This document shows, piece by piece, positions 2,001 to 21,954 of a stretch of DNA of 64,000 nucleotides (within the stretch, counting starts at the first letter, position 1; each line of letters opens with the position of its first letter). This stretch comes from Eubacteriales bacterium (lineage in GTDB: Bacteria > Bacillota > Clostridia > Oscillospirales > CAG-272). The stretch spans positions 1,542 through 65,541 of the forward strand of contig JAZNDN010000081.1 of NCBI GenBank assembly GCA_045588085.1. Reading direction: 5' to 3'. A program made the position numbers and the translations under genes. The notes beneath the pieces are model-generated. The model had not been told where the DNA came from. It saw only the letters and a list, made by a program, of their open reading frames with translations, and searched no databases.

Positions 2001-3026
2001 TCAGTCGATTTCGACAATCCAGCCCTCAGGTGCCTCAATACGTCCCATCTGAATACCGGTAAGGGTTTCATAGAGCTTCTTGGTGGTGGGGCCCATCTCG
2101 GTCATACCTGCGGGGAAGCAGATTTCACGGCCGTGGTCAACTATCTTGCCGACGGGGGAAATAACTGCCGCGGTACCGCAAAGACCGCACTCGGTGAAGC
2201 TGTCAAGCTCGCTCTTGCTGATAACGCGCTCCTCCGCCTCAAGTCCGAGGTATTCACGCGCAACTACCATAAGAGAACGGCGAGTGATAGAAGGAAGAAT
2301 GCTCTCCGACTTGGGAGTGACTACGCCGCCGTCCTTAGTAACGAAGATTACGTTTGCTCCGCCGGTTTCTTCAATTGTCGTGTGAGTTGCAGCATCAAGA
2401 TATACGTTCTCGTCGTATCCCTGCTCGTGAGCGTCTACAATGTTGTAAAGGCTCATTGCATAGTTAAGACCTGCCTTGATATGACCGGTTCCGTGAGGAG
2501 CCGCACGGTCAAGGTCGGAAAGTCTGAGAGTCAGAGGTCTGACACCTCCCTTGAAGTAAGGGCCAACGGGAGTGACGAGAATGCGGAACTGATACTCGGT
2601 TGCAGGCTTAACGCCGATAACCGCATTGGTTCCCATCATGTAGGGTCTTATATAAAGGGTAGCACCGGAGCCGAACGGGGGAACGTATGCGGCGTTAGCC
2701 TTAACTACCTTTTTAACTGCCTCGATAAACTTTTCCTTGGGGTAAACAGGCATTTTGAGTCTTTTCGCGGAATCCTCAAGACGCTGCGCGTTGAGGTCGG
2801 GGCGGAAGGTAACTATTCTTCCGTCCTCGGTGGTGTACGCCTTAAGTCCCTCGAAACAGGTCTGCGCATACTGGAATACGCAAGCGCACTCGTTAAGGGT
2901 AATGGTGTGGTCCGCGGTAAGAGTACCTTCGTCCCACTTTCCATCCTTATAATTAGATACGAAGCTGTAATCGGTTTCCATATAGCCGAAGCCGAGAGAA
3001 GCCCAATCTATATTTTTCTTTTCCAT
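2001..3026 (-). CDS. ilvE: Branched-chain amino acid aminotransferase (class IV)
   Basis: 341 aa. The N-terminus reads LGFGY..TDY....Y.DGKW, followed by FEGLKAY and GTGHIKAGLNYA, which are characteristic of IlvE. It is the last gene of the T-box operon. Confidence 0.9.
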   Translation of the reverse strand: MEKKNIDWASLGFGYMETDYSFVSNYKDGKWDEGTLTADHTITLNECACVFQYAQTCFEGLKAYTTEDGRIVTFRPDLNAQRLEDSAKRLKMPVYPKEKFIEAVKKVVKANAAYVPPFGSGATLYIRPYMMGTNAVIGVKPATEYQFRILVTPVGPYFKGGVRPLTLRLSDLDRAAPHGTGHIKAGLNYAMSLYNIVDAHEQGYDENVYLDAATHTTIEETGGANVIFVTKDGGVVTPKSESILPSITRRSLMVVAREYLGLEAEERVISKSELDSFTECGLCGTAAVISPVGKIVDHGREICFPAGMTEMGPTTKKLYETLTGIQMGRIEAPEGWIVEID

Positions 3027-3036
3027 AACCGTCTCC

Positions 3037-3576
3037 TTAGTTTTTGTAATCTCTGCCCAATGACAAAGCCTTCATATTGAGCTCCTTGAGAGCTGCCTTC
3101 TTAGGCGGAACGAGCTTCTCAACTACCTCTTCAGCTCCGTCGAAGGAAAGCTCGGGGTGATTTTCAAGAAGATGACCGACTATAATCATGTTAGCAAGGC
3201 TGCTGATTCCCTCTTCCTTTGCCATCTGGGTTGCGGGAATATAGAACACGTCTACGTCATCTCTTTCTACCTTTGCATCGATAAGAGAGGAATCTACGTA
3301 TATCTGGCCGCCCTTGACTACCGTATCAGCGTATTTCTCAAGCGAGGGAAGGTTCATAACAACCAGCACGTCAGGCGCGGTTATGATAGGTGAGCCAACA
3401 GGAGTATCCGAAAGGATTACGTTACAGTTTGCGGTTCCTCCGCGCATTTCGGGGCCGTACGAGGGGAGCCAGGACACCTGAAGCTCCTCAACGAGTCCCT
3501 TGTAAGCCAAGAACTTTCCGGAGAAGAGTATACCCTGTCCACCAAAGCCTGCTATAAGTATCTCTGTGGTTTTCAT
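3037..3576 (-). CDS. 2-oxoacid:ferredoxin oxidoreductase, gamma subunit
   Basis: 179 aa. The N-terminal [13 protein letters not shown] motif is typical of OFOR gamma subunits. It overlaps the beta gene by 4 nt. Confidence 0.85.
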
Positions 3577-4331
3577 TTGCCCTCTGCCTCCTTTTCGGTT
3601 CTGTCTTTATATACACCCAAAGGATAATAAGGAAGCATATCGCTCTCTATCCATTCAAGCGCCTGCTTGGGAGTCATTCCCCAGTTGGTAGGACAAGCGG
3701 AAACTACCTCGACAAGCGAAAAGCCCTTGCCCTCAATCTGATTCTGGAACGCCTTTTTGATTGCCTTCTTGGCATTCTTTACGTTCTTTACGTTGTTTAC
3801 CGCAACGCGAGCTATATACTCAGGGCCCTCGAGAGTTGCAAGCATCTCACTAACCTTAATAGGCCAACCGCAATGCTTTACGTCACGTCCGTAAGGCGAG
3901 GTCTGGGTAACCTGACCGGGAAGGCTGGTAGGAGCCATCTGACCGCCTGTCATACCGTAAATTGCGTTATTTACGAAGATAACGGTTATATTCTCATTTC
4001 TTGCCGCGGAATGTACGGTTTCCGCCATACCGATAGATGCAAGGTCACCGTCGCCCTGATAGGTGAATACTACGTTTTCGGGGCGGCAACGCTTTATACC
4101 GGTTGCTACGGCAGGAGCTCTACCGTGCGCAGACTCTATCATATCACAGTTGAAATAATCGTATGCGAAAACGGCACAGCCTACGGGTGCAACACCGATA
4201 GCCTTACCCTCTATACCGAGCTCGTCAATAGCCTCTGCGACAAGACGGTGAATTATACCGTGAGGACAACCGGGGCAGTAGTGCAACGGCTTATCCGTCA
4301 AGGATTTCGGCTTTTCAAATACTATTGCCAT
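3573..4331 (-). CDS. 2-oxoacid:ferredoxin oxidoreductase, beta (TPP-binding) subunit
   Basis: 252 aa. It has a CPGCPHG cysteine motif and the TPP motif [11 protein letters not shown]...[11 protein letters not shown]. Confidence 0.9.
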
Positions 4332-4333
4332 AA

Positions 4334-5395
4334 TCAGAACTCTCCTTTCTCTGCCTTGAATATAGCAGAAAGCACCTCTTCGGGTGTAGGAATCATACCG
4401 CCTACGCGATTGCAGAGCGATATGGGCTTTTTACACTCGGTGGCAAGTCTTACGTCCTCTATCATCTGTCCCATGCTGAGCTCGACGGATATGAAGGATT
4501 TAACCTTATCTGCGGCTGCTCTGAGAGCTGCTGTGGGGAACGGCCAAAGGGTGATAGGACGGATAAGACCGACCTTTATACCCTGACGTCTTGCCTCTGC
4601 AACTGCATTTTTAGCTACTCTTGAAGCAATACCGAAGGCAACGACGCAAATCTCTGCATCCTCCATCATGTATTCCTCCCACATAGCCTCACTCTTCTCT
4701 ATTTCCTTATACTTTTCAAAGCGCTCAAAGTTCACCTTTTCGAGCTCATCGGCTTTCAGGTAAAGAGAGTTTACTATATTGTGCTTACGCTTGCACTCGG
4801 TGCCGGTAAGCGCCCAAGGCTTCTCGTAGGTTTCGGTTTCTGTGTCCTCAAAGGTTATAGGCTCCATCATCTGACCTATGGTTCCGTCAGCGAGAATCAT
4901 GGAAACCATGCGGTACTTATCTGCAAGCTCGAAGCCCTTGATTGTAAGGCTCGCCATCTCCTGAACCGAAGCGGGAGCAAGAACTATCATGCGATAGTCG
5001 CCGTGTCCGCCGCCCTTGGTTGCCTGGAAATAATCCGCCTGAGAGGGCTGAATACCGCCAAGACCGGGGCCTCCGCGCTGTACGTTAACTACGAGTGCGG
5101 GAACGTCTGAGCCTGCTATGTAGCTGAGTCCCTCTGCCTTAAGAGATATTCCGGGGCTTGACGAGGACGTCATAACGCGCATACCTGCCGCAGATGCTCC
5201 GTAAACCATGTTTATAGATGCAATTTCGCTCTCTGCCTGAAGGAACACTCCTCCGATTTTGGGCATTTTCTTTGCCATATAAGCGGCAATCTCGGTCTGA
5301 GGGGTGATGGGGTATCCGAAATAGTGACGGCAGCCTGCTCTGATAGCCGCCTCTGCAATAGCTTCGTTACCCTTCATTAAAATTCTTTCTGCCAT
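4334..5395 (-). CDS. 2-oxoacid:ferredoxin oxidoreductase, alpha subunit
   Basis: The ORF track starts at 5419 (a TTG). I prefer the ATG at 5395, which gives [22 protein letters not shown] and has AAGGAGG 8 nt upstream. The sequence is typical of OFOR alpha subunits. Confidence 0.85.
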
Positions 5396-5408
5396 AATAA
5401 TAGCCTCC

Positions 5409-5615
5409 TTACTTTTCAACCGTTATTATGCAATCGGGGCACATAGTAGCGCAGAAGGCACAGCCTATACACTTTTCCTGCTCCTTCATGTACGCCGGAG
5501 AATAACCCTTGGGATTGAGTTTATCCTCTGCGATTGCAAGACATTTCTTGGGGCAAGCGTCTACGCAAAGACCGCAGCCCTTACACATATCGGTGTTAAA
5601 AGTTACTTTAGTCAA
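5409..5615 (-). CDS. 2-oxoacid:ferredoxin oxidoreductase, delta subunit (2x[4Fe-4S] ferredoxin)
   Basis: 68 aa with a TTG start preceded by GGAGG. It has two CxxCxxCxxxCP motifs (CKGCGLCVDACP and CIGCAFCATMCP). Confidence 0.9.
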   Translation of the reverse strand: MTKVTFNTDMCKGCGLCVDACPKKCLAIAEDKLNPKGYSPAYMKEQEKCIGCAFCATMCPDCIITVEK

Positions 5616-5659
5616 TTTTTATTCCTCCTATTTATATCAGCCGCACACCCGACGCTACG

Positions 5660-6328
5660 TCAGAGTGGCAGGTCGAAATATTTCTTCTGAAGCGAAAGAG
5701 GCATCACGGGTATTCCCGAAAGCCCCTCGGCTACACTGCGCTCAGCGGTATGAAGCCAAATCGGAAGCCCGGTAGCCCTGCTTACGCTTTCTGCAAAGGC
5801 AACCGAATCCATAACCGTCTTTGGCGTAGTTTCTCTGCCAATATTAGAGTTGTTTACGATACAGTTGAAGCGTATCCCGCACGCCTCCTCTATTTCTCTC
5901 ATAATCTCCACGGCACCCTCTACGTCAGACGTCAGCGGTCTGTGGCAATTAAGAACGAACGCCATGCGGTAATCACCCTCTGCTTTTATCGCATCGGCAA
6001 ATCTTCCAAGCGCGTATGCGCCTCTGTCGTCACCGCCGATATCTACAACTCCGAAGCAGGATTTATCCTGAACGATGCGGTAGCTCGCCGCAGGAATTGC
6101 GGGAACGTCTACGTTCGTATTCGCATAATCAGAGCATATAAGCGTAATTCCGCGCTCTTTGAGCTCGCTCTCGCTATCCTTGGTTCTGAAATACGGATTC
6201 ACTATGTCCAAGTCAGCGATACATACCTTTTTGCCTTCATCTGCCAGAAGCATTGCATAGTTGACGGCAATATTGGTTTTGCCGCTGCCGTAATGCCCTG
6301 CAAAAAGGGTTAATCTTTTATGTTCCAT
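5660..6328 (-). CDS. P-loop NTPase of unknown role (MinD/ParA/GPN-loop-like)
   Basis: 222 aa. It has a Walker A motif GHYGSGKTN followed by ADLDIVNPYF and VVDIGGDD. I see no recognisable partner-specific motif. Confidence 0.6.
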   Translation of the reverse strand: MEHKRLTLFAGHYGSGKTNIAVNYAMLLADEGKKVCIADLDIVNPYFRTKDSESELKERGITLICSDYANTNVDVPAIPAASYRIVQDKSCFGVVDIGGDDRGAYALGRFADAIKAEGDYRMAFVLNCHRPLTSDVEGAVEIMREIEEACGIRFNCIVNNSNIGRETTPKTVMDSVAFAESVSRATGLPIWLHTAERSVAEGLSGIPVMPLSLQKKYFDLPL

Positions 6329-6367
6329 AATTCTTCTTTTCCACCGCGCAAGGCGGTGGACTTACAA

Positions 6368-8641
6368 TCAAAGTAATTTTCTTATTATCTTTCCGCTGGT
6401 AGTCTTGGGAAGACTCTCGTGGAATTCGACTATTCTCGGATACTTATAAGGCGCGGTACGGGACTTGACGTAATTCTGAATTTCGCGCTTAAGCTCGTCG
6501 GTTCCCTCGTGACCCTTTACAAGCACTATGCTTGCCTTTACGACCTGACCGCGAATTTCATCGGGAGCTGCCGAAACACCGCACTCAAGAACGTACGGAA
6601 GCTCCATGATAACGTTCTCTATCTCAAACGGACCTATGCGGTATCCCGACGACTTAATAACGTCATCGGCACGGCCGACGTACCAGAGGAATCCGTCCTC
6701 ATCGCGCCATGCAAGGTCTCCTGTATGATAGTATCCGTCACGCCAGGTTTCCGCAGTGATTTCGGGATTGCCTTCATAAGCATAAGCAAGTCCGCAAGGC
6801 AGACCGTTTGAAATATTTATGCATATCTCTCCGCTCTCACCGCTGGCAACCTCCTCGCCCTCGGAGCTAAGAAGATGCACGTCGTAAAGCGGTACAGGCT
6901 TACCCATAGAACCAATTTTATGGCTTCCGCCTGCAAGGTTACCGATAATAAGGGTGCTCTCGGACTGACCGAAGCCCTCCATAATCTTAAGACCCGTATG
7001 GTTCTCGAACTGGCGGAACACCTCGGGGTTAAGCGCCTCGCCTGCCGTCGATGCGTGCTCTATGCTTGAAAGGTCAAAGCGGGAAAGGTCCTGCTTGATA
7101 AGCATTCTGTACATCGTGGGCGGTGCGCAGAAGGTAGTGATGCTATACTTTTTGAACAGAGGAAGTATCTTCTCCGCATCGAAACGGTCAAAGTCGTATA
7201 CGAAGGTTGCCGCCTCGCAAAGCCACTGACCGTAAAGCTTGCCCCACATAGCCTTTGCCCAACCGGTATCGGATATGGTAAGGTGAAGTCCGTCGGGGTT
7301 GACCTGGTGCCAGTATTTTGCAGTAATGAAATGTCCAAGAGGATACTTATAATTATGCGCTGCAATTTTGGGATACCCCGACGTTCCCGAGGTGAAGAAC
7401 ATAAGCATAGGGTCTTCTCCGCAGGGAGCGTCCTCGGTGCGCAGGTAGTGGCTGCTGTATATTGTGTATTCGTCATCGAAGCTATGCCAGCCATCGCGGT
7501 TGCCTCCGACGAGTATTTTATGCTCAAGGCCGGGGCACTTTGCCGCCGCGGAATCTACCGAATCCGCGACCTCTCCGTCTGCTGTGCAGAGTATTGCCTT
7601 TACCTTACCGGCGTTGAATCTGTATTCAAAATCCTTCTCAAGAAGCTGATTCGGAGCGGGTATTGCAATCGCTCCGAGCTTATGTAAGCCGAGAATTGCG
7701 AACCAGAACTGATAATGACGCTTAAGAACGAGCATCACACGGTCACCGCGCTTTATGCCGAGAGATTTGAAATAGTTTGCAGCTCTCGCGGACTCTCTTT
7801 GCATATCCTTGAAGGTAAATCTGCGCTCGGTACCGTCACCGCTTATGTGAAGCATGGCAAGCTTATCGGGCTTGCGCGCACCGAGTGCATCAACGACGTC
7901 AAAGGCGAAATTGAAGCTGTTTTCGTTTTTGAAGGATATCTCGGTAAGAGCTCCGTCCTTTTCGACGGGAATAATAAAATCGTGATAAACTCTCTGCTGC
8001 TTGTCTTCATCGCGACGTTTGGTAGTTTCAGAGGCTGCTGCCTCCTGCTCTCCCTCTCGTGCCGCCTGATTGCGAAGCACGATAGCATAGAAGGAACAAT
8101 CCTCGCCGCCGACGGCTATCATTCCGTGAGGTGTGCCGGAATCGTAGTATATGCTGTCGCCCGGATTCAGAATTTCGGTATGGTCGCCTATCTGAATTTT
8201 CATCTGACCGGTTATGACGATATCGCATTCCTGACCCTCGTGAGTCACAAGCTCTATTTTCTCACCCTCAGCACCCTCATGGTAATTCATCTCCATGTAA
8301 AGAGGAAGTGCTATACGGTTACGGAAGCCTGATGCAAGGCTGTATCCAACCATGTGATGAGCCTCTTCTATTCGCTGACCGTCACCCTTTCTCGTCAGAG
8401 CGTAGGACCTGAGCTTAGGGCTTTTGCCCTCGATAATATCACCCATATCAACGCCGAAGCTGAGCGTGCAGTGGTAAAGGAATGCTATGCTGAGGTTTCT
8501 GTTACCTGCCTCACACTCCTCGTACTCGCTCTCGCTCATTCCGGTACGCTCTGCCATCTCGGCAACCGAAAGTCCGGTTATCTCACGCAGCTCGCGTATA
8601 CGGTCGGCAATCTGCTTTATCTTATGCTCCATTGTATCCAT
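6368..8641 (-). CDS. Fusion protein: XRE-type HTH + cupin domain (about aa 1-190) fused to an AMP-forming acyl-CoA synthetase (about aa 215-757)
   Basis: The HTH reads LSVAEMAERTGMSESEYEECEAG. The cupin reads GDSIYYDSGTPHGM. The adenylate-forming motifs are FFTSGTSGYPK, YHTGD and SGKIIRK. The RBS is AAGAGGTG upstream of ATG 8641. Confidence 0.85.
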   Translation of the reverse strand: MDTMEHKIKQIADRIRELREITGLSVAEMAERTGMSESEYEECEAGNRNLSIAFLYHCTLSFGVDMGDIIEGKSPKLRSYALTRKGDGQRIEEAHHMVGYSLASGFRNRIALPLYMEMNYHEGAEGEKIELVTHEGQECDIVITGQMKIQIGDHTEILNPGDSIYYDSGTPHGMIAVGGEDCSFYAIVLRNQAAREGEQEAAASETTKRRDEDKQQRVYHDFIIPVEKDGALTEISFKNENSFNFAFDVVDALGARKPDKLAMLHISGDGTERRFTFKDMQRESARAANYFKSLGIKRGDRVMLVLKRHYQFWFAILGLHKLGAIAIPAPNQLLEKDFEYRFNAGKVKAILCTADGEVADSVDSAAAKCPGLEHKILVGGNRDGWHSFDDEYTIYSSHYLRTEDAPCGEDPMLMFFTSGTSGYPKIAAHNYKYPLGHFITAKYWHQVNPDGLHLTISDTGWAKAMWGKLYGQWLCEAATFVYDFDRFDAEKILPLFKKYSITTFCAPPTMYRMLIKQDLSRFDLSSIEHASTAGEALNPEVFRQFENHTGLKIMEGFGQSESTLIIGNLAGGSHKIGSMGKPVPLYDVHLLSSEGEEVASGESGEICINISNGLPCGLAYAYEGNPEITAETWRDGYYHTGDLAWRDEDGFLWYVGRADDVIKSSGYRIGPFEIENVIMELPYVLECGVSAAPDEIRGQVVKASIVLVKGHEGTDELKREIQNYVKSRTAPYKYPRIVEFHESLPKTTSGKIIRKLL

Positions 8642-8815
8642 TTTCTACTTACACCTCTTTCATAAAAGTGTGGCGAAAGGCTGACCGCAACGTCCTGTGC
8701 GGAATATTTTCGCCTCAGCGATAACCAAAAGCTGCTGCGAGCGATACCCACGGCAGAATTGGGAAGATTTTTCGGAATTTTACTGTGCTCTGTCGTGCGG
8801 GAAATTGTCTTCGGG

Positions 8816-9060
8816 AATAAAAAAGCGTCTCAAGAAAGCATTCCTGAGACGAGTAGAATATACCCGCGGTACCACTCATTTTGCGGAAAAACCGCCACCT
8901 TTGACTCCTGCAAGCCATTGCCCTTAACGCGGGAAACGTAGAACCCTAACCGACGCTCAGGCTCTCAACTCGGAAGTGATGGGTACCATGGCTTTTTGCT
9001 ATCGGCTTGCACCGCCCGCCGACTCTCTGAAAGCTTATTTTGCCGTACCGTCTTCGTCAC
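8816..9060 (-). promoter_or_regulatory. T-box riboswitch leader, specifier AUC (Ile)
   Basis: The minus strand shows a Stem I base GTGACGAAG...CTTCCGAG, the AGAGAG element, the distal loop GGTGCAAG, and the specifier AUC (8980..8978) followed by A. The T-box sequence is AAAATGAGTGGTACCGCGGG (8882..8863). The terminator is CGTCTCA-12 nt-TGAGACG plus a U-tract (8851..8816). Confidence 0.8.
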
Positions 9061-9090
9061 AGTCTTTAAAAGTATTAAATTTACGAGAAT

Positions 9091-9119
9091 ATTATAGCAC
9101 CTCTTTTTCCAAATGTCAA
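9091..9119 (-). promoter_or_regulatory. Consensus sigma-A promoter driving the T-box leader
   Basis: The minus strand reads TTGACA (9119..9114), 17 nt, then TATAAT (9096..9091). It lies about 25 nt upstream of Stem I. Confidence 0.7.
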
Positions 9120-9224
9120 ATACTTTTTGTCAAAAAACCGCACAAAATTTCAAATAACACACATTTAAAGTTCGTGTATTCTATTAAATTACCGCCAAAA
9201 AACAAATATTTTTGACCTCTGCTA

Positions 9225-9253
9225 TTGACAAAATGCGGATTTAATGCTTAAAT
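9225..9253 (+). promoter_or_regulatory. Sigma-A type promoter for the LeuA-like operon
   Basis: TTGACA (9225..9230), 17 nt, then TTAAAT (9248..9253). The RBS AAAGGAG lies before ATG 9336. Confidence 0.5.
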
Positions 9254-9335
9254 ATATGTTATCTCTTGGAATTTGCACAAAAAGAATTCAGCAAACAGGT
9301 CCGAGCGATTTTTCTGAAAAGGAGACTCACAAGTT

Positions 9336-10739
9336 ATGAGACAAATTACAATCAGTGACGCAACAATGAAACAGTCCTCAGAGGAGCTTCGCCTTAGCTT
9401 TAAGGAGAAGATTGAGCTCTCTAAGCTCCTAGACAAGCTCGGAGTGGATATCATTGAGCTGGAGGGTATAAAAAATCCTCGCATTGATGCCTTGCAGATA
9501 AAGTCAATAGTCGCAGCAGTCAGCGACAGTCGCATAGCTGTTCCCGTCGAGCTGCTCAACAATGAAAATATCGAAAAAACCTGGGCTGCGCTGAAAAACG
9601 CAAAAAATCCAAGGCTTCAGGTTTGCGCGGCTACAAGCCCCGTGCAAATAGAATATCTCTTCCATAAAAAACCCGAGGCCATGCTTGAAGCTATAAGCAG
9701 CACCGTTGCAGCCTGCCGCGCGCTCTGCTCTGACGTAGAGTTCGTCGCGTACGATGCAACCCGCAGTGAATCCTCTTTCCTTGCCGATGCTATAAACGCG
9801 GCAATTTCAGCAGGTGCGGCAACGGTAACGCTTTGCGACACCGCAGGCACTATGCTTCCCTCCGAGTTCGCGGAATTTATCCGCGCTCAGTACGAGGCAG
9901 TTCCCAAGCTTCGCGACCTTACGCTCGGAGTTTGCTGCTCTGACACCATAGCTATGGCTGACGCTTGCGCAGTTATGGCAGCCGCAGAGGGAGCTGCACA
10001 TATACGTACGGCGGCATATTCACTCAGCGAAGCCTCACTTTCCAACGTAGTTCGTATTCTCTGTGCAAAGTCAGACTCGTTAAACGCTTCCGTCGGAGTA
10101 AGAGCGACTCAGCTCAGCCGTATAATTTCTCAGATAGAGCGTCTTTGCCAGACCGGCAAGAGCAAGAGCAATGCTTTGGAATCGGAGGATGACGGAACAT
10201 TCCTCACCGTTCACGATACGAAGGAAGCAGTTGCGGCAGCAACCGCCAAGCTCGGATACGACCTCTCGGACGAGGATGCCGAAAAGGTATACGCCTCATT
10301 CAAGCAGATTGCAGACAAAAAGGAAAAGGTATCCTTCAGAGAGCTTGATGCCATAGTCGCATCCTCTGCCATGCAGGTTCCCTCAACCTATAAGCTCGAT
10401 ACTTACGTCATCACCTCCGGAAACACAATTTCCGCAACCGCACATATAAAGCTTGAAAAGAACGGCCACCACGTTGAAGGCGTTTACATCGGCGACGGCT
10501 CAATAGACGCAGCGTTTCAGGCTATTGAAAAAATCACCGGCTGCCACTATGAGCTTGACGATTTCCAGCTCCAAGCAGTTACCGAAGGACGCGAGGCTAT
10601 GGGACAGACGATAGTTAAGCTTCGCTCGGGAGGAAAGGTTTATTCGGGAAGAGGCATCTCAACCGATATCGTTGGCGCGGGTATTCAGGCATACCTGTCC
10701 GCTCTTAACAAAATCATATACGAGGAGGAAGTAGAATGA
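9336..10739 (+). CDS. 2-isopropylmalate synthase-like protein (HMGL-like barrel + LeuA dimerisation/regulatory domain) with degenerate catalytic motifs
   Basis: 467 aa. The N-terminus ITISDATMKQSS..LSFKEKIELSKLLDKLGVDIIELEG parallels the LeuA region DTTLRDGEQ..LS.EEK. The C-terminus GDGSIDAAFQAIEKI...GRGISTDIVGAGIQAYLSALNKI matches the LeuA regulatory domain. The HxH metal motif is replaced by CCS. Confidence 0.75.
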   Translation: MRQITISDATMKQSSEELRLSFKEKIELSKLLDKLGVDIIELEGIKNPRIDALQIKSIVAAVSDSRIAVPVELLNNENIEKTWAALKNAKNPRLQVCAATSPVQIEYLFHKKPEAMLEAISSTVAACRALCSDVEFVAYDATRSESSFLADAINAAISAGAATVTLCDTAGTMLPSEFAEFIRAQYEAVPKLRDLTLGVCCSDTIAMADACAVMAAAEGAAHIRTAAYSLSEASLSNVVRILCAKSDSLNASVGVRATQLSRIISQIERLCQTGKSKSNALESEDDGTFLTVHDTKEAVAAATAKLGYDLSDEDAEKVYASFKQIADKKEKVSFRELDAIVASSAMQVPSTYKLDTYVITSGNTISATAHIKLEKNGHHVEGVYIGDGSIDAAFQAIEKITGCHYELDDFQLQAVTEGREAMGQTIVKLRSGGKVYSGRGISTDIVGAGIQAYLSALNKIIYEEEVE

Positions 10740-13246
10740 AGCTCTCCTTTTCAACAAGAGGCTGGCCCTCTCTTTCCTTTGACGAAATGCTCGACGTTGC
10801 CTCCGATATGGGCTTCTCCGGCGTTGAGGTTTACAATTTGACCAAATTCGATCCGTTAATGGAAAAGGGCGGACCCTTCCACAAATATAACATAGCCGCT
10901 ACCGTCCGCAAGCTGCGTGACAGGGCTATATCTATCCCTTGTTTTGACACGTCCATAGACCTTTCTTCCGACAAGAACGCTGTGGCATCTGTTATAAGCC
11001 TTATTGAAACAGCACACGGGGCAAGGGTTCCGTACGTTGCGGTTTGCGCTTTATCGGATGACGAGAAGACGGTGGGCGCGGCTCTGACAGAGCTTTTGCC
11101 GATTGCCACGGAGAAAAACGTCTGTATACTTATAAAAACCAGCGGCATTTATTCCAATACGGCAAGGCTGCGCGAAATGCTTGACAGATTTGCCAGCGAT
11201 AATCTTGCTGCTCTTTGGGACGTACACCATCCTTACAGAGATAACGCCGAGTCGGGTGACGACACTATAAAGAATTTGGGCTCGTATGTTTGTCACGTTC
11301 ACATGCGCGACTCCGACGACGAGGGTACCTATCAGCTTATCGGTGAGGGAACAATGCCGATAGACGACGTTATGCGCGCGCTTTCCTCGGTTAATTACGA
11401 TGCCTTCATCTCTCTTGAATGGAAGCCCGAATGGATGACCGACCTTCAAGACCCGGAGGTTATTTTCCCGTATTTTGTAAACTATATGTCACGTTTTCAC
11501 TCTACGAGAGATATGCAGAAGAGCCTTTACTTCAACCATGACGGCACCGGTCAGTACGTCTGGAAGAAGGATGAACTTATAGATTTGACCTTCTCGGAGG
11601 TTCTTGACAGAGTGGCTGACGAGTTCCCCGACCAGTATTGCTTCAAGTACACCACGCTGGACTACACGCGTACATATTCTCAGTTCCGTGAGGACGTAGA
11701 CCGTTTTGCCAGAGCCCTTGTTTCACTGGGCGTCAAGGCAGGCTCAAAGGTCGCAGTCTGGGCAACTAACCTACCCGCGTGGTATATAACGTTCTGGGCA
11801 ACGACCAAGCTTGGCGCGGTTCTCGTTACGGTAAATACCGCATACAAAATACACGAGGCAGAGTATCTGCTTCGCCAGTCGGACACTCACACACTCGTTA
11901 TGATTGAGAGCTGTCTTGACTCGAATTACAAGGAAATAATTAACACGCTCTGCCCCGAACTCAAGAAAACAGTACCCGGAGAGCCTCTGCACTCAAAGAG
12001 GCTTCCGTTCCTGCGTAACGTTATCACGGTTGGATTCAAGCAGGAGGGCTGCCTTACGTTCGACGAGGCAATGGCGCGTTACAGTCTTGTCAGCCGCGAG
12101 CAGATTGCCAGAATGGCGGCAGCGGTCAAGCCGAGCGACGTATGCAATATGCAGTACACCTCCGGCACGACGGGATTCCCCAAGGGTGTTATGCTCACCC
12201 ACTATAACGTAGTGAACAACGGAAAGTGTATCGGCGACCGCATGGGACTTTCCACCGCGGACAGAATGATGATACAGGTGCCTATGTTCCATTGCTTTGG
12301 AATGACGCTTTCCATGACGTCGTCAATGACGCACGGCGCCACAATGTGCCCGATGCCGTATTTCTCTGCGAAATCCTCGCTTGCTTGCATAAACCAAGAA
12401 AAAATCACCTGTTTTAACGGTGTTCCCACCATGTTTATTGCAATGTTCAACCACCCGAACTACCGCAGCACCGATTTTTCGCACATGAGAACCGGTATTA
12501 TGGCGGGTGCGGGTTGCCCCCCCGAGCTTATGAAGCGTGCCGCAGACCCCGCAGAGATGAATATGACGGGTATTGTAAGCGTTTACGGACAGACCGAGTG
12601 TGCCCCCGGTAACACCATGAGCTCCTGGACGGATTCTCTTGAGGTCCGCACCGAAACAGTGGGCTGCGCATTCCCTCACGTTATGTGTAAAATAGTAAAT
12701 CCCGAAACCGGTGAAGAGGTTGGCCCGGGTATCAACGGTGAATTTTGCGCCAAGGGCTACAACACCATGAAGGGCTACTACAAGATGCCCGATGCAACGA
12801 AGGGCACTATCGACGAGGAGGGCTGGCTTCATTCAGGAGACCTTGCCTGCCGTGACGAAAACGGAAACTACAAAATCACAGGACGTCTGAAGGATATGAT
12901 TATCCGCGGCGGTGAGAACATTTACCCCAAGGAAATTGAGGAATTTATATACACGCACCCGATGACCAAGGACGTGCAGGTCATAGGAGTACCCGACAAG
13001 AAGTACGGCGAAGAGATTATGGCGTGTATCATTCTCAAAGAGCCCGGAAGCATAACGGTGGAAGAAATGACGGCTTATATCAAAGCCAGCATGGCGCGCC
13101 ACAAGGTCCCCAAGTACATTGAGTTCGTCGACAGCTTCCCTATGAATGCAGCAGGAAAAGTTCTCAAATACAAAATGCGCCAGGATGCAGCGCAGCGTCT
13201 GGGACTCGTCGGCGATGGCTCAGATACGGCTTCTCCCGGAAAATAA
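10736..13246 (+). CDS. Fusion protein: xylose-isomerase-like TIM barrel (sugar phosphate isomerase/epimerase family, about aa 1-260) fused to an AMP-dependent acyl-CoA ligase (about aa 290-836)
   Basis: The TIM-barrel part reads GFSGVEVYN, HVHMRDSD and YDAFISLEWKPEW. The ligase motifs are YTSGTTGFPKGV, GWLHSGD and AGKVLKYKMR. The start overlaps the upstream stop (ATGA). Confidence 0.8.
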   Translation: MKLSFSTRGWPSLSFDEMLDVASDMGFSGVEVYNLTKFDPLMEKGGPFHKYNIAATVRKLRDRAISIPCFDTSIDLSSDKNAVASVISLIETAHGARVPYVAVCALSDDEKTVGAALTELLPIATEKNVCILIKTSGIYSNTARLREMLDRFASDNLAALWDVHHPYRDNAESGDDTIKNLGSYVCHVHMRDSDDEGTYQLIGEGTMPIDDVMRALSSVNYDAFISLEWKPEWMTDLQDPEVIFPYFVNYMSRFHSTRDMQKSLYFNHDGTGQYVWKKDELIDLTFSEVLDRVADEFPDQYCFKYTTLDYTRTYSQFREDVDRFARALVSLGVKAGSKVAVWATNLPAWYITFWATTKLGAVLVTVNTAYKIHEAEYLLRQSDTHTLVMIESCLDSNYKEIINTLCPELKKTVPGEPLHSKRLPFLRNVITVGFKQEGCLTFDEAMARYSLVSREQIARMAAAVKPSDVCNMQYTSGTTGFPKGVMLTHYNVVNNGKCIGDRMGLSTADRMMIQVPMFHCFGMTLSMTSSMTHGATMCPMPYFSAKSSLACINQEKITCFNGVPTMFIAMFNHPNYRSTDFSHMRTGIMAGAGCPPELMKRAADPAEMNMTGIVSVYGQTECAPGNTMSSWTDSLEVRTETVGCAFPHVMCKIVNPETGEEVGPGINGEFCAKGYNTMKGYYKMPDATKGTIDEEGWLHSGDLACRDENGNYKITGRLKDMIIRGGENIYPKEIEEFIYTHPMTKDVQVIGVPDKKYGEEIMACIILKEPGSITVEEMTAYIKASMARHKVPKYIEFVDSFPMNAAGKVLKYKMRQDAAQRLGLVGDGSDTASPGK

Positions 13247-13453: not shown

Positions 13454-13897
13454 TTAATATTGCATTTTCATATTCATTCGCCTGGTGGATATCTTTATAG
13501 CAAAATAAACGGAACACCATATTGCAAGATAAACACCAAGGAATACAAGTGTAAATATCAAAATTACCAAAGGTTCAAAGGGTATCCATGAATTTAACGT
13601 ATAACACAGCACGTACGCCACGTAAAGCGTTGAAAAATGGCACAGCAAGGATTTCGCTAACGGCCAATGCTCAATTTGGTTAAATATAGAAGCGCCTGCC
13701 TGAACAAAGGCAAGAAGATACGTTGACAAAATGGCAACGAAGACATCCGTGCCGCTAAATCTGACGCCGCCGTCGAGGACGTTATCCAAAATTATGAATA
13801 CAATTCCGCATATTATAGGACCGAATCCGGCAAAAATCGCACCTCTGTGCAAAAAGGTTTTTATATAATATTTTTTCGTATACTCTATATCATCCAT
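13454..13897 (-). CDS. Multi-pass membrane protein (DUF3021-like), partner of the LytTR regulator
   Basis: 147 aa with four hydrophobic segments and an FNQIEHWPL motif. It lies 17 nt downstream of the LytTR gene. Confidence 0.6.
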   Translation of the reverse strand: MDDIEYTKKYYIKTFLHRGAIFAGFGPIICGIVFIILDNVLDGGVRFSGTDVFVAILSTYLLAFVQAGASIFNQIEHWPLAKSLLCHFSTLYVAYVLCYTLNSWIPFEPLVILIFTLVFLGVYLAIWCSVYFAIKISTRRMNMKMQY

Positions 13898-13914
13898 TTA
13901 TATTCACCTCCGTA

Positions 13915-14361
13915 TCACAATCCGAGCGCCTTTTTAACCGTCTTAAGCTGACGGCGGGAAACGTAGTCAACGTACCCCGAAGCGAAGCTTATCGTCATTG
14001 CCGCTCCGAACGAAGCACCAAAACGCTTAATTTTCTTTATATTGGCAAGAGAAGACTGATTTATCTTGACAAATCCCGCAAGCTCCATTTGCTCTATCTC
14101 GTACAGGCGTTTTTTTATCCTATACTTTCCGCTGTCGCAGATGGCGAAAAGACGTCTGTTTTCAATTACGAAAACATTTATCTCGTTTATATCAAGACGT
14201 ATCGACTGCTCACCGTCATATCCGATGATTTCATCGTTTCCCGAATCCTCAGCAAGCTTTATTATTTCTCGTATTTTATCGGTTTGCTCTCTGGCGTAAA
14301 TCTTGATTTCTTCTTCTTTTACGTCATTGCTTATATACAAGCTGCATTTCATGCGCCTCAC
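13915..14361 (-). CDS. Stand-alone LytTR-domain DNA-binding regulator (no receiver domain)
   Basis: 148 aa. The C-terminal FVKINQSSLANIKKIKRF......ISFASGYVDYVSRRQLKTVKKALG is typical of LytTR domains. Confidence 0.75.
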   Translation of the reverse strand: MRRMKCSLYISNDVKEEEIKIYAREQTDKIREIIKLAEDSGNDEIIGYDGEQSIRLDINEINVFVIENRRLFAICDSGKYRIKKRLYEIEQMELAGFVKINQSSLANIKKIKRFGASFGAAMTISFASGYVDYVSRRQLKTVKKALGL

Positions 14362-14606: not shown

Positions 14607-15236
14607 TCAGTCAAACTCAAAGGTTGCCTTAACTGCACTTGCACCGGAGGTGTAATTAAGTTCCATGCTTTCAACAGTCTTGCTGTTTCTTACAACCTTG
14701 ATGCTAACTGCATATCCGAGATTTGCACCGAAGACATCCTTTGTACCGTCTGCCGCTACGGTAGCGGTAAGAGTATTGCCGTCCTTGCTTACGGTGTATC
14801 CCTTCGCAAGCTTTTCCAAATCTACCTTAAGAGCACCGAGAACAGCATCGTCATCGAACGACTCGTCACTGAAGTTTCCGTCCTCATCCATAGTAACGGT
14901 CTTGGTGTACTCGGTTTTTGCCTCATCGGGAATGCTGTCCAAGGACACCTCGTTCCACTCTTCGTAAGTATAGTTGATGATTGCGCTTCCGTCAGCCTTA
15001 TAGGTTATGGTGTAGGTGGCTTCAAGGGTTCCGAGGCCCTCTGTTGTAGTTTCGGTTTTTATTACAACCTTTGCAGGCTCGGTTGCAGCCAGCGATTCCT
15101 GAAATTCCTTTGCAGTAACGGCAGGAGTGGTATCATTACTACCGTCTCCCTGGCCATCGTCGGTATTGTTGTCATTACATGCAAACATCATGCAAAGGCA
15201 CGCCAGAATAAGAACGACAGAAAGTATTTTTTTCAT
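14607..15236 (-). CDS. Lipoprotein, unknown function (paralog 3 of 3)
   Basis: 209 aa. The signal peptide MKKILSVVLILACLCMMFAC precedes a D/N/G-rich linker. The RBS is GGAAGGA. Confidence 0.7.
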   Translation of the reverse strand: MKKILSVVLILACLCMMFACNDNNTDDGQGDGSNDTTPAVTAKEFQESLAATEPAKVVIKTETTTEGLGTLEATYTITYKADGSAIINYTYEEWNEVSLDSIPDEAKTEYTKTVTMDEDGNFSDESFDDDAVLGALKVDLEKLAKGYTVSKDGNTLTATVAADGTKDVFGANLGYAVSIKVVRNSKTVESMELNYTSGASAVKATFEFD

Positions 15237-15328
15237 AATTTATCCTTCCAATCCGACTCAGCCGCAAGCGATATAGCAACCGGCTGAATCCTAAGATATA
15301 TTCAATTTTTACCGGAACAACCCGGTGA

Positions 15329-16102
15329 TTATCCAAGATTGATTTTCTGATGGTTGTACTGATACTTAGCGTCAATAACAACCTTAGTCTCCTGCACCTC
15401 TATCTTAGCGTCGGAGTCATCAACGGAAATCTCATGCTTAGGAACAGTATACGCGAGCTTAATACCGGTAATACGTCCACCTGCGGTAACTACGGTTACC
15501 TCAATGTCCGAATCAATAGTCTGTCCTTCTTCAAGATATGCACCGATAACGCTGGTTGCATGCTCTTTCTTAATTTTGAGAAGAAGGCTTTCGTATACCT
15601 CATCGTATACAGCCTCATATACCATTTCCGCGGAAAGATTAAGTCTTATAAATCCTTCCTTGGGTGCAAAATCATCGGCTTCGGCATCCCAGGTTGCGCC
15701 CTTGTCATCGGTAACGCCCTTGCCCTCTACATACCACTTGGATTCGGTCTGAGGTGCTGTCATGTTAAGCGTGTTACCTACCTCACGAAGAGAGGAATAA
15801 GAGCCGTTGTATACAGAAACAGCCTTGCCTTCTATCGTTCCGGTAACAAGACTTGCCGTGCTCTCAAGAACAACGTTTCCACCTATGGTCTGTGTGGTGG
15901 TTGTATCGGATCTTGTGGGAATACTGTCATCGAACATTTCAAGAACAGCCTTCATCTGCTCACCTGCAGCACCATCGAGCACAGAATTGTCACCGCTGCC
16001 ATCACCGTTACCGCTTCCGTCGCCGTCAGTGTTGTTATCATTACAGGATACAACAGCAAACAAACAACACAGCGCAAGAAGCAATGCTATAATTTTTTTC
16101 AT
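15329..16102 (-). CDS. Lipoprotein, unknown function (paralog 2 of 3)
   Basis: 257 aa. The signal peptide and lipobox read MKKIIALLLALCCLFAVVSC, followed by an NDNNTDGDGSGNGDGSGD linker. Confidence 0.7.
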   Translation of the reverse strand: MKKIIALLLALCCLFAVVSCNDNNTDGDGSGNGDGSGDNSVLDGAAGEQMKAVLEMFDDSIPTRSDTTTTQTIGGNVVLESTASLVTGTIEGKAVSVYNGSYSSLREVGNTLNMTAPQTESKWYVEGKGVTDDKGATWDAEADDFAPKEGFIRLNLSAEMVYEAVYDEVYESLLLKIKKEHATSVIGAYLEEGQTIDSDIEVTVVTAGGRITGIKLAYTVPKHEISVDDSDAKIEVQETKVVIDAKYQYNHQKINLG

Positions 16103-16135
16103 ACGTATATTCCTTTCAAGCTTATATCACTGGGA

Positions 16136-16831
16136 TTATTCCTCACCGGGAACCTCAAGCTCCACGGAAGAATAGTCGTAGCTGGTATTGATAGTTACCA
16201 AGGCGCCGCTGCCGGCAGCCTTGTACGACACGTTGATGTAGTAAAGGTAACTGTAACCGTTGGTGATAATTTCAACGCTTATGTCACCGTCGGCATTAAT
16301 GGCAGTTCCCAGAACTCTTTCGGAATTTTCTGCTACTATGGTGCCTTCAAGCGTTTTGCCATCCTCACTAAGCTTGTAGGTCTTGAACTTATCTTCCTCA
16401 ATTCTTACGGTAAACGGGGAGGTAACGTATGTATCAACGTCAACCCACTCTTCTCCCTCGGTGGTATACACCTGTCCGTCTTTGTAATAAATCTTGCCTT
16501 CGACGGTCTTTATTCTTCCTTCGCTCATTTCCGGAACCGTAGCGAGACGCTGGTAATTATACTCTAAAACGGATATTGCACCGTCCGTCTTGGTTATGAA
16601 TTCACCCTCAAGCACGTCGTCACCGGTGTACGCGATATGAGTGGTAACGACAGTAGGATTCGACATAGCAATAATTTCAGGAATGGTTTTGGGTTCCTTA
16701 CCCGAGCCGCCGTCCTGAGAACCGCCCTGATCTCCCTGCTGATCACCGTTACCGTCGGTGTTTTCATCATCGCAGGAAACAACGGCAAACATGCATATTA
16801 ATGCAAGGAGCAAGCATATGATTTTTTTCAT
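16136..16831 (-). CDS. Lipoprotein, unknown function (paralog 1 of 3)
   Basis: 231 aa. The signal peptide and lipobox read MKKIICLLLALICMFAVVSC, followed by a DDENTDGNGDQQGDQGG linker. Confidence 0.7.
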   Translation of the reverse strand: MKKIICLLLALICMFAVVSCDDENTDGNGDQQGDQGGSQDGGSGKEPKTIPEIIAMSNPTVVTTHIAYTGDDVLEGEFITKTDGAISVLEYNYQRLATVPEMSEGRIKTVEGKIYYKDGQVYTTEGEEWVDVDTYVTSPFTVRIEEDKFKTYKLSEDGKTLEGTIVAENSERVLGTAINADGDISVEIITNGYSYLYYINVSYKAAGSGALVTINTSYDYSSVELEVPGEE

Positions 16832-17140: not shown

Positions 17141-18226
17141 TCAGATGAGCTTTTTGAGATATCCCTCTCTGTAAAGAAGCTCTGCGATAAGAACTGCACC
17201 GCCGGCAGCTCCGCGAAGAGTGTTATGCGAAAGGCCTACGAACTTGAAATCGTAAATTGCATCGGAGCGAAGTCTTCCTACCGAAACACCCATTCCACGA
17301 TACAAATCTCTGTCAAGCTTGGTCTGAGGTCTGTTGTCCTCTTCAAAATAGGTTATAAACTGCTCGGGAGCCGAAGGCAGACCGAGAGACTGAGGCTTTC
17401 CGTAAAACTCTGCCCAATCCTTAAGTATCTGTTCCTTAGTCGGAGTGTTTTCAAATTTTACGAATACCGCTGCCATGTGTCCGTCGGAAACGGGAACGCG
17501 AAGGCACTGAGTGGTTATGGTTACGTCGGACGCGGGAACGATTTCACCGTTTTCAACCTTACCCCAAACACGAAGAGGCTCCTTCTCGCTCTTCTCCTCC
17601 TCACCGCCAATGAATGGAATGAGGTTATCTATCATTTCAGGCCACTCGGCAAAGGTCTTGCCTGCGCCGCTTATAGCCTGGTACGTCGTTGCAACTACCT
17701 CCTTAATTCCGTACTTGCGGAGCGGGGTCAGCGCGCCTACGTACGACTGAATAGAGCAGTTGGGCTTAACTGCGATAAATCCGTGCTCGGTGCCAAGTCT
17801 CTTCTTCTGAGCGGCAATTACCTCAAGATGAGCGTCGTTAACCTCCGGAATTACCATAGGAACGTCGGGCGTCCATCTGTGAGCAGAGTTGTTTGAAACG
17901 ACGGGAACCTCCGCCTTTGCGTAAGCCTCCTCGAGAGCGCGAGTCTCATCCTTAGTCATGTTGACTGCGCAGAATACGAAATCGCAAAGCGACTTAACCT
18001 TTCCGATTTCATCGGAAGAAATAATAGTCATACCTTTAACCTTTTCGGGACAGGGAACGGTCATCTTCCATCTTCCCTCAACAGCATCGGCATAGCTCTT
18101 TCCTGCCGAGCGGGGACCTGCGATAACCGCGCTTATTTCAAAATAGGGATGCTCTGAGAGAAGAAGTATGAATCTCTGACCGACCATGCCGGTAGCACCT
18201 ATAATACCAACCTTTAACTTTTCCAT
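17141..18226 (-). CDS. asd: Aspartate-semialdehyde dehydrogenase
   Basis: I moved the start from the ORF-track 18274 to ATG 18226, which gives MEKLKVGIIGATGMVGQRF. AGGAGG lies 6 nt upstream, and the predicted promoter lies downstream of 18274. The active-site region reads KPNCSIQ. Confidence 0.9.
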   Translation of the reverse strand: MEKLKVGIIGATGMVGQRFILLLSEHPYFEISAVIAGPRSAGKSYADAVEGRWKMTVPCPEKVKGMTIISSDEIGKVKSLCDFVFCAVNMTKDETRALEEAYAKAEVPVVSNNSAHRWTPDVPMVIPEVNDAHLEVIAAQKKRLGTEHGFIAVKPNCSIQSYVGALTPLRKYGIKEVVATTYQAISGAGKTFAEWPEMIDNLIPFIGGEEEKSEKEPLRVWGKVENGEIVPASDVTITTQCLRVPVSDGHMAAVFVKFENTPTKEQILKDWAEFYGKPQSLGLPSAPEQFITYFEEDNRPQTKLDRDLYRGMGVSVGRLRSDAIYDFKFVGLSHNTLRGAAGGAVLIAELLYREGYLKKLI

Positions 18227-18277
18227 GTTGCCTCCTGATACACCGCGTCTTATGCGCGGAAAATAAATAACCATCTC

Positions 18278-19521: not shown

Positions 19522-19958
19522 CTCAACTCAACCTCACATTTACCGAAATTATTTTCAACTACAAATTCCCTTATAGCACGGTAATCCGCAAGCTTCGCAC
19601 GCTCACTCAGCGTAACGGTCAGAACCTCCGCTGCCATTTTTTCGGTCTGAAATCCCTTGGCACGAACGCTGATATGCTCGGCATCAAGCGAAAATCTCTC
19701 TGCTATTGCAAGACGGACCCCGTCGCAGAACGCCTCCTCGGCAGTCTTTTCAAAAACGCTCTCCTCCTCAGCACCGGAGTATTCGGGAAGCTGTGCAAAT
19801 CCCTGCCCCAAAGAAATAAGAGGAGATAAAATAGCCGAGACCAGAATTATTCCAAGTGCGGCACGCGCCGCTCTCTCTGCCTTTCCCGACGATAAAACGA
19901 AGCCCGCAAACGCCACGGCGCAGGATGCACAAAAAATCGTAACAAGATGCGCGCTCAT
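19518..19958 (-). CDS. spoIIIAF: Stage III sporulation protein AF
   Basis: 146 aa with two N-terminal TM segments. It overlaps both neighbouring genes by 4 nt. Confidence 0.75.
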   Translation of the reverse strand: MSAHLVTIFCASCAVAFAGFVLSSGKAERAARAALGIILVSAILSPLISLGQGFAQLPEYSGAEEESVFEKTAEEAFCDGVRLAIAERFSLDAEHISVRAKGFQTEKMAAEVLTVTLSERAKLADYRAIREFVVENNFGKCEVELR

Positions 19959-21313: not shown

Positions 21314-21712
21314 TTACGCGGAATACTCGAGAAAGCCGAGCCCCGTGTCAACAATTTTGCGAAAATACGGCAGACAAATACAGATTATTTCAAGGCGCGA
21401 TGCCAGAGTAACGCTCTTTGCAAGACCTCCCTCGCCCATTTCCGAGAAGGCGTCTGCAAGAACCCCGCACAGAAAGCCAACCGCAATAATTTTAACGGCA
21501 GCACGCGCGTATTCGTAAATCCCTCCGACAGCAGCCAGCTCCTGTATCTCGGAAAACACCCCCAAAAACGCCTCCGCATAAAGCGAAACTATTCCCAGTA
21601 TGCATAGCGAAACGAACACGGGTACGCCCTTCCACCCAAAAAGCTTTAATACCTGAGAGAGTATACCAACCAGAATGATAACTCCGAGAGTACGGGCAAA
21701 AAGCTCACTCAT
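21314..21712 (-). CDS. spoIIIAD: Stage III sporulation protein AD
   Basis: 132 aa, a four-TM small membrane protein. The call rests on its position in the array. Confidence 0.8.
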   Translation of the reverse strand: MSELFARTLGVIILVGILSQVLKLFGWKGVPVFVSLCILGIVSLYAEAFLGVFSEIQELAAVGGIYEYARAAVKIIAVGFLCGVLADAFSEMGEGGLAKSVTLASRLEIICICLPYFRKIVDTGLGFLEYSA

Positions 21713-21903: not shown

Positions 21904-21954
21904 GATTTCAACCTCTTTTCTTTGTCGTGGTACAATTTGCCCATGCTCCGATTT

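Follow-up and report, generated by a model that had tools for sequence, protein, structure and literature searches.

We identified a gene in a 64,000-nucleotide stretch of DNA from a Eubacteriales bacterium [GCA_045588085.1, contig JAZNDN010000081.1, positions 1,542 to 65,541, referred to below as the window] that encodes a LeuA-like protein of 467 amino acids [9336..10739 (+), ATG start]. Judged by its sequence and that of its relatives, the protein is an inactive paralogue of 2-isopropylmalate synthase (IPMS) that is maintained by selection. The reading we favour, with a probability of about 0.45, is that it acts as a pseudoenzyme which provides leucine feedback to a leucine-specific, probably isovalerate-activating ligase. 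The candidate for this ligase is part of a fusion protein with an N-terminal TIM barrel (TIM::ligase), encoded by the directly adjoining downstream gene.

The open reading frame (ORF) of the LeuA-like gene specifies a degenerate HMGL-like barrel, accessory subdomain II and a LeuA regulatory domain. Fold and domain order are those of the short bacterial form of LeuA, a member of the DRE-TIM metallolyase superfamily, as found in E. coli and N. meningitidis. An HMGL-like barrel and a preserved LeuA C-terminal domain had already been proposed from the letters of the DNA (the original prediction), and both were recovered in Pfam searches as matches to PF00682 (HMGL-like, residues 17-226, E 7e-30) and PF08502 (LeuA_dimer, residues 334-460, E 2e-31).

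Catalytic residues and structure of the LeuA-like protein

The window protein was aligned to LeuA of N. meningitidis (3rmj), LeuA of E. coli and canonical representatives. In the N-terminal motif, E. coli F-D9-T-T-L-R13-D14-G-E16-Q17 pairs with S-D8-A-T-M-K12-Q13-S-S of the window protein. The original prediction that SDATMKQSS stands in place of DTTLRDGEQ was right about the loss of the motif but one residue off in register. The remnant is DATMKQSS [D8-S15, 9357..9380 (+)], in which the first Asp is kept, the Arg is a Lys, the metal-ligand Asp that follows it is a Gln, and the Glu and the second Gln are lost. The predicted replacement of the H-x-H-[DN]-D metal-ligand motif by CCSDT [C200-T204, 9933..9947 (+)] was reproduced, with E. 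coli H202-T-H204-D-D paired to C200-C-S202-D-T. The position of E. coli E141 is occupied by Y139, and the counterpart of the NGIGERAGN loop of LeuA is four residues shorter and not conserved. In an alignment without length constraint, approximately 37 residues of LeuA subdomain I containing HSSGIHQDG...PE.IG are deleted in the window protein and in all family members examined. The substitutions hold against both the E. coli and the N. meningitidis enzyme, and the catalytic residues are not merely offset.

M. tuberculosis IPMS binds its metal through Asp81, His285 and His287, and Arg80 contacts ligands (PMC5498780). The window protein has Gln, Cys and Ser at the positions of Asp81, His285 and His287 and has thus lost every protein ligand of the metal. 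The active site of the M. tuberculosis enzyme is also lined by Ser376-His379 of the other chain (PMC5498780); the matching segment, an H-x-S-G-x-H motif which completes the active site of the partner, is deleted in the window protein. Catalysis by IPMS also requires the accessory domain (PMC9860122).

To define the family, a HMMER scan was run over 1.84 billion cluster representatives. It returned approximately 105 full-length proteins (50%-identity clusters) of 453-497 amino acids that are 31-57% identical to the window protein; canonical LeuAs with DTTLRDGEQ and HxH show up only at about 225 bits. Across 105 family representatives, the first-Asp column (D8) is Asp in 102. The Arg column of LeuA holds R (33), K (27) or C (17) and other residues, Arg or Lys being present in 57%. 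No residue reaches a majority in the metal-Asp column, the commonest occurring in at most 17 of the 105. The two HxH columns are most often E (23), Q (14) or C (11) and S (59), A (8) or N (8), respectively, with His not among the top three in either, and the equivalents of E. coli E141 and T171 vary as well. The metal-ligand columns are thus variable and essentially never His or Asp. Because the same losses recur in some 105 diverged cluster representatives, they are not due to chance. Cys200 and Cys201 were considered as substitute metal ligands and dismissed, as neither column is conserved. Compared to LeuA, the family therefore lacks the metal Asp, the HxH histidines, the GERAGN loop and the HSSGIHxDG segment, and it keeps the Arg in part of its members.

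With the metal ligands gone, the Arg column mixed and the subdomain-I motif deleted throughout the family, the LeuA-like protein is almost certainly unable to perform a Claisen condensation, in line with what the original prediction had put as probable. An active isopropylmalate, citramalate or related 2-oxoacid synthase with alternative residues would fit the LeuA-family fold and homology and the persistence of the first Asp and a basic residue in the N-terminal motif. Such an enzyme is nevertheless very improbable, as no conserved alternative takes the place of the three metal ligands, the subdomain-I motif is missing and the scores lie far below all curated cutoffs for LeuA, CimA and NifV. 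The top-scoring NCBIfam model was a LeuA equivalog with 299 bits against a cutoff of 532, and the protein fell below the cutoff of all 19 LeuA, CimA and NifV equivalog models listed. Although it belongs to the LeuA family by descent, it fails on four defining catalytic features and should therefore not be annotated as 2-isopropylmalate synthase. The NCBI Prokaryotic Genome Annotation Pipeline (PGAP) labels close homologues as 'hypothetical protein'; this label and that of 'AMP-binding protein' hint at none of the biology of the LeuA-like/TIM::ligase pair.

The AlphaFold2 model of the LeuA-like protein has a mean predicted local distance difference test score (pLDDT) of 93.5 and contains an intact IPMS-like barrel, which superposes on the IPMS catalytic domains 3ewb, 3eeg and 3rmj_B at 1.5-1.9 Å. 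The sole segment with a pLDDT below 50, residues 279-283 [10170..10184 (+)], is a loop located exactly at the 37-residue deletion and is regarded as the deletion scar. According to the model, the loss of the chemistry has left the scaffold intact. The top fold match is BjuMAM1.1 (6e1j). Methylthioalkylmalate synthase (MAM) and plant citramalate synthase are likewise LeuA paralogues that were remodelled by loss of one module, but there the regulatory domain was lost and catalysis kept, which is the opposite of the loss seen here. A stretch reading PVSxVQMEYxxHKKP was examined as a family-specific feature and rejected, as the LeuAs of N. meningitidis and Listeria have ATSxxHMEYKLKM at this position.

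Differently degenerate motifs were found in three long-form LeuA homologues (about 500-516 amino acids; P0254, P0259 and P0250). P0254 [L090, 6001-7536] has DTTLCDGEQ, RAYND for HxHND and FVANTGYHPYE for HSSGIHQDG; its gene directly precedes an aconitase-family (LeuC-like) gene and has a T-box core about 90 nucleotides upstream. Proteins of the P0254 type may represent a second, independent class of altered LeuA.

Selection on the regulatory domain and the barrel

In a collection with one genome per species, 359 stretches with the LeuA-like gene were confirmed by tblastn, with an intact ORF of conserved length. Eighty close loci were retrieved from these. All derive from Oscillospiraceae, Acutalibacteraceae, Faecousia or unclassified Clostridia/Eubacteriales metagenome-assembled genomes; a host is named in about a third of the 80 locus titles, and the named host is always a ruminant. 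Ratios of nonsynonymous to synonymous substitution rates (dN/dS) were calculated from 344 pairs and are approximate, as dS is near 1.3.

The regulatory domain [residues 346-467, 10371..10736 (+)], which corresponds to the LeuA allosteric and dimerisation domain (Pfam LeuA_dimer) and forms two beta-beta-beta-alpha units in the secondary structure of the model, is the most conserved part of the protein. Its dN/dS is 0.06, and mean pairwise identity is 57% in the deep family against 37.5% among four canonical LeuAs. The corresponding values are 0.16, 32% and 43% for the barrel and 0.19, 34.5% and 36.8% for the linker. The conservation pattern of the family is inverted compared to that of real LeuA, with the regulatory domain more conserved than the barrel. 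A decaying pseudogene or an annotation artefact would account for the lost catalytic motifs and for the label given to close homologues, but with an intact ORF and conserved length in the 359 confirmed stretches and in about 105 diverged clusters down to 31% identity, dN/dS values of 0.06-0.19, with 0.16 overall, and a confident structure model, this explanation is left with practically no probability; conservation already refutes it.

The regulatory domain of the family is 36.6% identical to canonical ones and is as close to these as canonical LeuAs are to one another. Conservation reaches 90% or more in about 36 of its 122 columns, among them those of the GDGPIDA and G-x-G-x-STDI loops. G423 pairs with G462 of E. 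coli LeuA, and the column is Gly in 104 of 105 members; the G462D allele is used to abolish leucine feedback inhibition of E. coli LeuA (PMC6345581). The profile of the family also matches the regulatory domain of CimA (3f6g, E 8.5e-5), although single-sequence and profile matches are weak and partial. The isoleucine-binding domain of CimA (3f6g, 3f6h) is homologous and demonstrates that the domain can be tuned to another branched-chain amino acid. CimA differs in being an active synthase with intact metal ligands, and the ligand specificity of the LeuA-like protein is a prediction.

Within the barrel, D8, T10, S101, E106, Y107, K112, D140, R143 and D168 are conserved in the family and lie at the C-terminal barrel face. 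These residues, together with the purifying selection on the barrel, would fit a neofunctionalised enzyme subunit, in which the LeuA barrel, alone or with the TIM domain of the partner, takes part in a new metal-independent reaction on an intermediate of the leucine pathway. The ligase would then supply the substrate or consume the product, and the regulatory domain may still confer leucine control. Other HMGL-like barrels do partner second enzymes, as in the aldolase-dehydrogenase structures among the fold matches. Nevertheless, all of these barrel residues are already conserved in canonical LeuA and form no new constellation, and variation is seen at those positions which in LeuA touch substrate or metal (the Arg column and the equivalents of E141 and T171). 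We therefore consider a new catalytic role unlikely, though well within consideration.

A literature search on the LeuA-like family or on a LeuA pseudoenzyme returned no relevant paper. A 'leuA-like' gene of S. aureus (PMC10019231) was examined as a precedent and set aside, as it belongs to an unrelated operon.

The TIM::ligase partner gene and the leucine T-box in relatives

The LeuA-like gene overlaps the next gene by an ATGA stop/start [10736..10739 (+)]. This gene [10736..13246 (+)] encodes an 836 amino acid fusion of a xylose-isomerase-like TIM barrel [10736..11545 (+); Pfam AP_endonuc_2, residues 19-232] and a complete acyl-CoA (ANL) ligase domain [11546..13246 (+); Pfam AMP-binding and AMP-binding_C]. 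In all 87 related loci that extend past the degenerate LeuA-like gene, a TIM::ligase gene lies immediately 3' of it; these comprise 80 close loci and seven distant ones, the latter reached from representatives 32-56% identical to the window protein. Of the 87 loci scored, the window among them, 77 share the four-nucleotide overlap. The gene-level association is absolute and the two genes are predicted to be translationally coupled; a physical complex of their products is putative. In this respect the LeuA-like gene differs from leuA, as it always adjoins the TIM::ligase gene and not leuBCD: leuB, leuC or leuD was not found next to it in any of the 88 loci examined (window counted), which further argues against a cryptic synthase. 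Also, no canonical LeuA was detected in any fetched locus.

The ligase domain changes far more slowly than its neighbours: it is 85-96% identical across relatives, versus 65-83% for the LeuA-like protein and 63-83% for the TIM domain. Its 90%-identity cluster counts 260 members, whereas that of the LeuA-like protein contains no other protein. The NCBIfam model PRK12583 gave 652 bits for the fusion ligase against a cutoff of 832.

In 167 sequences of the TIM domain, D162, H165, H187, H189, D192 and E228 are nearly invariant, and K134 (Lys in 163 of the 167) replaces the canonical first metal-binding Glu. This pattern of conservation sets the TIM domain apart from the LeuA-like barrel, whose kind of degeneration it does not share. 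The conserved, altered site with Lys for Glu suggests chemistry beyond acid activation, which counts in favour of a neofunctionalised enzyme subunit. The closest PDB match of the TIM domain is the uncharacterised MJ1311 (3wqo), and a search for characterised standalone relatives of the domain returned only fragments of the same fusion family. One candidate standalone TIM protein (P0387) turned out to be a fusion split by a probable frameshift. In L087, a nanopore-hybrid contig, the TIM::ligase gene [7001-9521] is present as two overlapping ORFs of 398 and 452 amino acids, probably by frameshift or assembly error. In the distant relative L081, a gene for an Amidohydro_2 protein [9905-10711], which is absent from the window, overlaps the end of the TIM::ligase gene; the Amidohydro_2 family includes reversible decarboxylases.

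Leaders of the pair were analyzed for T-box elements. Rfam identified a plus-strand T-box immediately 5' of the LeuA-like gene in L002 (specifier CUC), L044 (CUC) and L068 (CUG), and a motif scan anchored on the register of these three alignments found a T-box core ahead of the pair in 72 of 86 leaders examined. The specifier position in 70 leaders is a Leu codon, namely CUC (37), CUG (19) or CUU (14). As three synonymous Leu codons occur at one position, this constitutes covariation evidence for leucine specificity. A leucine T-box is also found upstream of many Firmicute leu operons, and its presence before genuine leuA is a further point that a cryptic synthase would explain.

The same T-box bears on the possibility that the LeuA-like protein is a non-catalytic scaffold or stabiliser of the TIM::ligase which senses nothing or responds to something else than leucine, such as Ile, Val or a 2-oxo acid. 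A scaffold would agree with the strict pairing of the two genes and with their translational coupling. LeuA_dimer is by its Pfam description also a dimerisation module, and its conservation could mean oligomerisation. Furthermore, CimA binds Ile with the same domain (PMC9860122), so that the fold does not reveal which ligand is bound. A T-box with a Leu specifier in 70 loci, however, links the pair to leucine specifically, and conservation reaches beyond a surface to the Gly-rich loops and the G462-equivalent feedback residue. A scaffold of this kind is, in our judgement, an improbable account of the protein, if a credible one.

The T-box is absent from the window and from 13 other loci among the 86 leaders; the window has lost the leucine T-box that is present in most relatives. 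Judged by these leaders, most carriers use the LeuA-like/TIM::ligase pair as a leucine-starvation module, and this transcriptional layer would be missing in the window genome. The leader span of the window used for comparison with the leaders of L001-L089 is 9070-9335 (+). It contains a candidate promoter for the LeuA-like operon, TTGACA-N17-TTAAAT [9225..9253 (+)], that is conserved in 10 closely related T-box-less loci (e.g., L023, L024, L031 and L033). A stricter sigma-70 scan did not report this element, as the second hexamer fails its criteria. A possible CodY box, ATTTTTCTGAAAAGG, located 28 nucleotides upstream of the start and with three mismatches to the consensus, was present in one of 87 leaders and was treated as chance.

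The divergent operon and a proposed leucine feedback on isovalerate salvage

The LeuA-like gene is divergently transcribed from an operon headed by an isoleucine T-box, across an intergenic region of 694 nucleotides, which agrees with the 0.7 kb given in the original prediction. The T-box leader [8842..9069 (-); Rfam RF00230, 96.6 bits against a gathering score of 93] has the Ile specifier AUC in the covariance-model alignment. It is accompanied by a perfect promoter, TTGACA-17-TATAAT [9119..9091 (-)], and a terminator [8851..8826 (-)], both found in scans.

Genes of the divergent operon [2001..8641 (-)], assigned by Pfam and NCBIfam, flank the LeuA-like gene in relatives too, and in some lineages they run in the same direction as the LeuA-like pair. 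The first gene after the T-box [6368-8641 (-)] encodes a helix-turn-helix (HTH)-cupin-acyl-CoA synthetase of 757 amino acids that resembles MbcS. It is followed by genes for a P-loop protein of 222 amino acids with weak CbiA/ParA/ApbC-like matches [5660-6328 (-)], a ferredoxin [5409-5615 (-)], the alpha (VorB), beta and gamma subunits of a 2-oxoacid:ferredoxin oxidoreductase [3037-5419 (-); VorB 553 bits, above the cutoff of 399] and the branched-chain aminotransferase IlvE [2001-3026 (-); 457 bits, above the cutoff of 307].

The fusion of an XRE-type HTH domain, a cupin and a complete ligase is kept in nearly all related loci, many of which have two tandem paralogues [L002, 2611-4884 and 4969-7260; L082]. 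It is unusual for a short-chain acid ligase to carry a DNA-binding or sensor module, and the arrangement parallels the accessory domains of the other ligase in the locus. The position of the P-loop protein, between the ligase and the ferredoxin and oxidoreductase, is kept across relatives as well; the protein might be an Fe-S carrier for the oxidoreductase.

Fibre-degrading Clostridia of gut and rumen depend on branched-chain volatile fatty acids ('isoacids'), from which they make Val, Ile and Leu by carboxylation. Classical rumen physiology is also the basis for the in vivo direction of the oxidoreductase, namely reductive carboxylation. To our knowledge, the leucine branch of this route is poorly defined in its genes and in its control logic. 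From their sequences, the ligase, the oxidoreductase and IlvE of the divergent operon appear to form a complete route from branched-chain acid via acyl-CoA and 2-oxo acid to amino acid. This route needs no extra reaction, which speaks against the neofunctionalised subunit considered above.

The ligase of the divergent operon matches the MbcS model (418 bits, below the cutoff of 850), which supports a role of the cluster in the activation of short branched-chain acids. MbcS, the methylbutyryl-CoA synthetase of S. aureus, differs in that it supplies fatty-acid synthesis and works without an HTH-cupin, TIM or LeuA-like partner. Its substrates are 2-methylbutyrate and isobutyrate, whereas isovalerate is a poor one (PMC10026030). 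Because MbcS-type ligases use isovalerate poorly, a separate ligase for the leucine branch is plausible, and the TIM::ligase is an obvious candidate for it.

In the mechanism we propose, the LeuA-like protein would be made in a fixed ratio with the TIM::ligase from the overlapping genes. The TIM::ligase would be the leucine-specific entry enzyme of a salvage route, most likely converting isovalerate to isovaleryl-CoA. The oxidoreductase would carboxylate isovaleryl-CoA reductively to 2-oxoisocaproate, and IlvE would transaminate the latter to leucine. Leucine would be bound by the regulatory domain of the LeuA-like protein, and end-product inhibition would be passed to the ligase in trans, a feedback task that the same domain performs in cis in true LeuA. 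We infer leucine binding, the physical complex, the ligase substrate and the direction of regulation from sequence comparisons. The original prediction had cautiously suggested that the protein may be an amino-acid-sensing partner of the ligase fusion; this reading is favoured by the invariable pairing, the constraint on the regulatory domain and the leucine T-box in most relatives. A more detailed version, which we put forward tentatively and with some doubt, is that the LeuA allosteric module was re-attached to an isovalerate salvage route in Oscillospiraceae of ruminant and other guts, with the altered TIM barrel as the docking or transducing element.

The closest conceptual precedent is HisZ, an inactive histidyl-tRNA synthetase paralogue that serves as the histidine-responsive regulatory subunit of the short-form ATP phosphoribosyltransferase (HisG). 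There too, an enzyme paralogue lost catalysis and was kept as an allosteric subunit at the entrance of a pathway. HisZ has another fold and acts in another pathway, and its complex and regulation are experimentally established, whereas those of the LeuA-like protein are predicted.

Several observations weigh against leucine feedback by a pseudoenzyme. The Rfam scan found no plus-strand T-box upstream of the LeuA-like gene in the window. The fusion ligase reaches none of the NCBIfam equivalog cutoffs, no characterised structure is close to it, and its substrate is putative. The feedback model assigns no role to the nearly invariant polar set of the TIM domain (K134, D162, H165, H187, H189, D192 and E228). 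Finally, the barrel is under purifying selection (dN/dS 0.16) and keeps D8, T10, S101, D140, R143 and D168 at the old active-site face, which weakens the model because a pure sensor would not obviously need those residues. Because of this constraint on a dead barrel and the conserved site of the TIM domain, the neofunctionalised subunit and the scaffold are retained as alternatives to the pseudoenzyme.

The LeuA-like/TIM::ligase pair provides a concrete two-gene candidate module, under leucine T-box control in most relatives, for the leucine branch, and it is widespread (359 stretches). If leucine feedback by a pseudoenzyme is correct, the family would clearly illustrate how, in bacteria, a biosynthetic enzyme can lose its activity and take its allosteric site along into another pathway. 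It would then be useful for studying the evolution of feedback circuits and would offer a ready-made leucine-binding module. If instead the protein is part of a new enzyme, chemistry that is as yet unknown would be hidden in two altered TIM barrels.

Further genes of the window lie downstream of the pair. Three tandem paralogous ORFs [209, 257 and 231 amino acids; 14607-16831 (-)] have lipoprotein-like N-termini of the form MKKI...LLAL.C.FAVVSC[ND]D.NTD, and a Pfam search with one of them [14607-15236] gave no match. A pair of genes for a LytTR DNA-binding protein and a DUF3021 membrane protein [13454-14361 (-)] is convergent with the end of the TIM::ligase gene. An aspartate-semialdehyde dehydrogenase-type gene [17141-18274 (-)] and homologues of spoIIIAA and spoIIIAE [19955-23321 (-)] are also present and indicate a spore-forming Firmicute.

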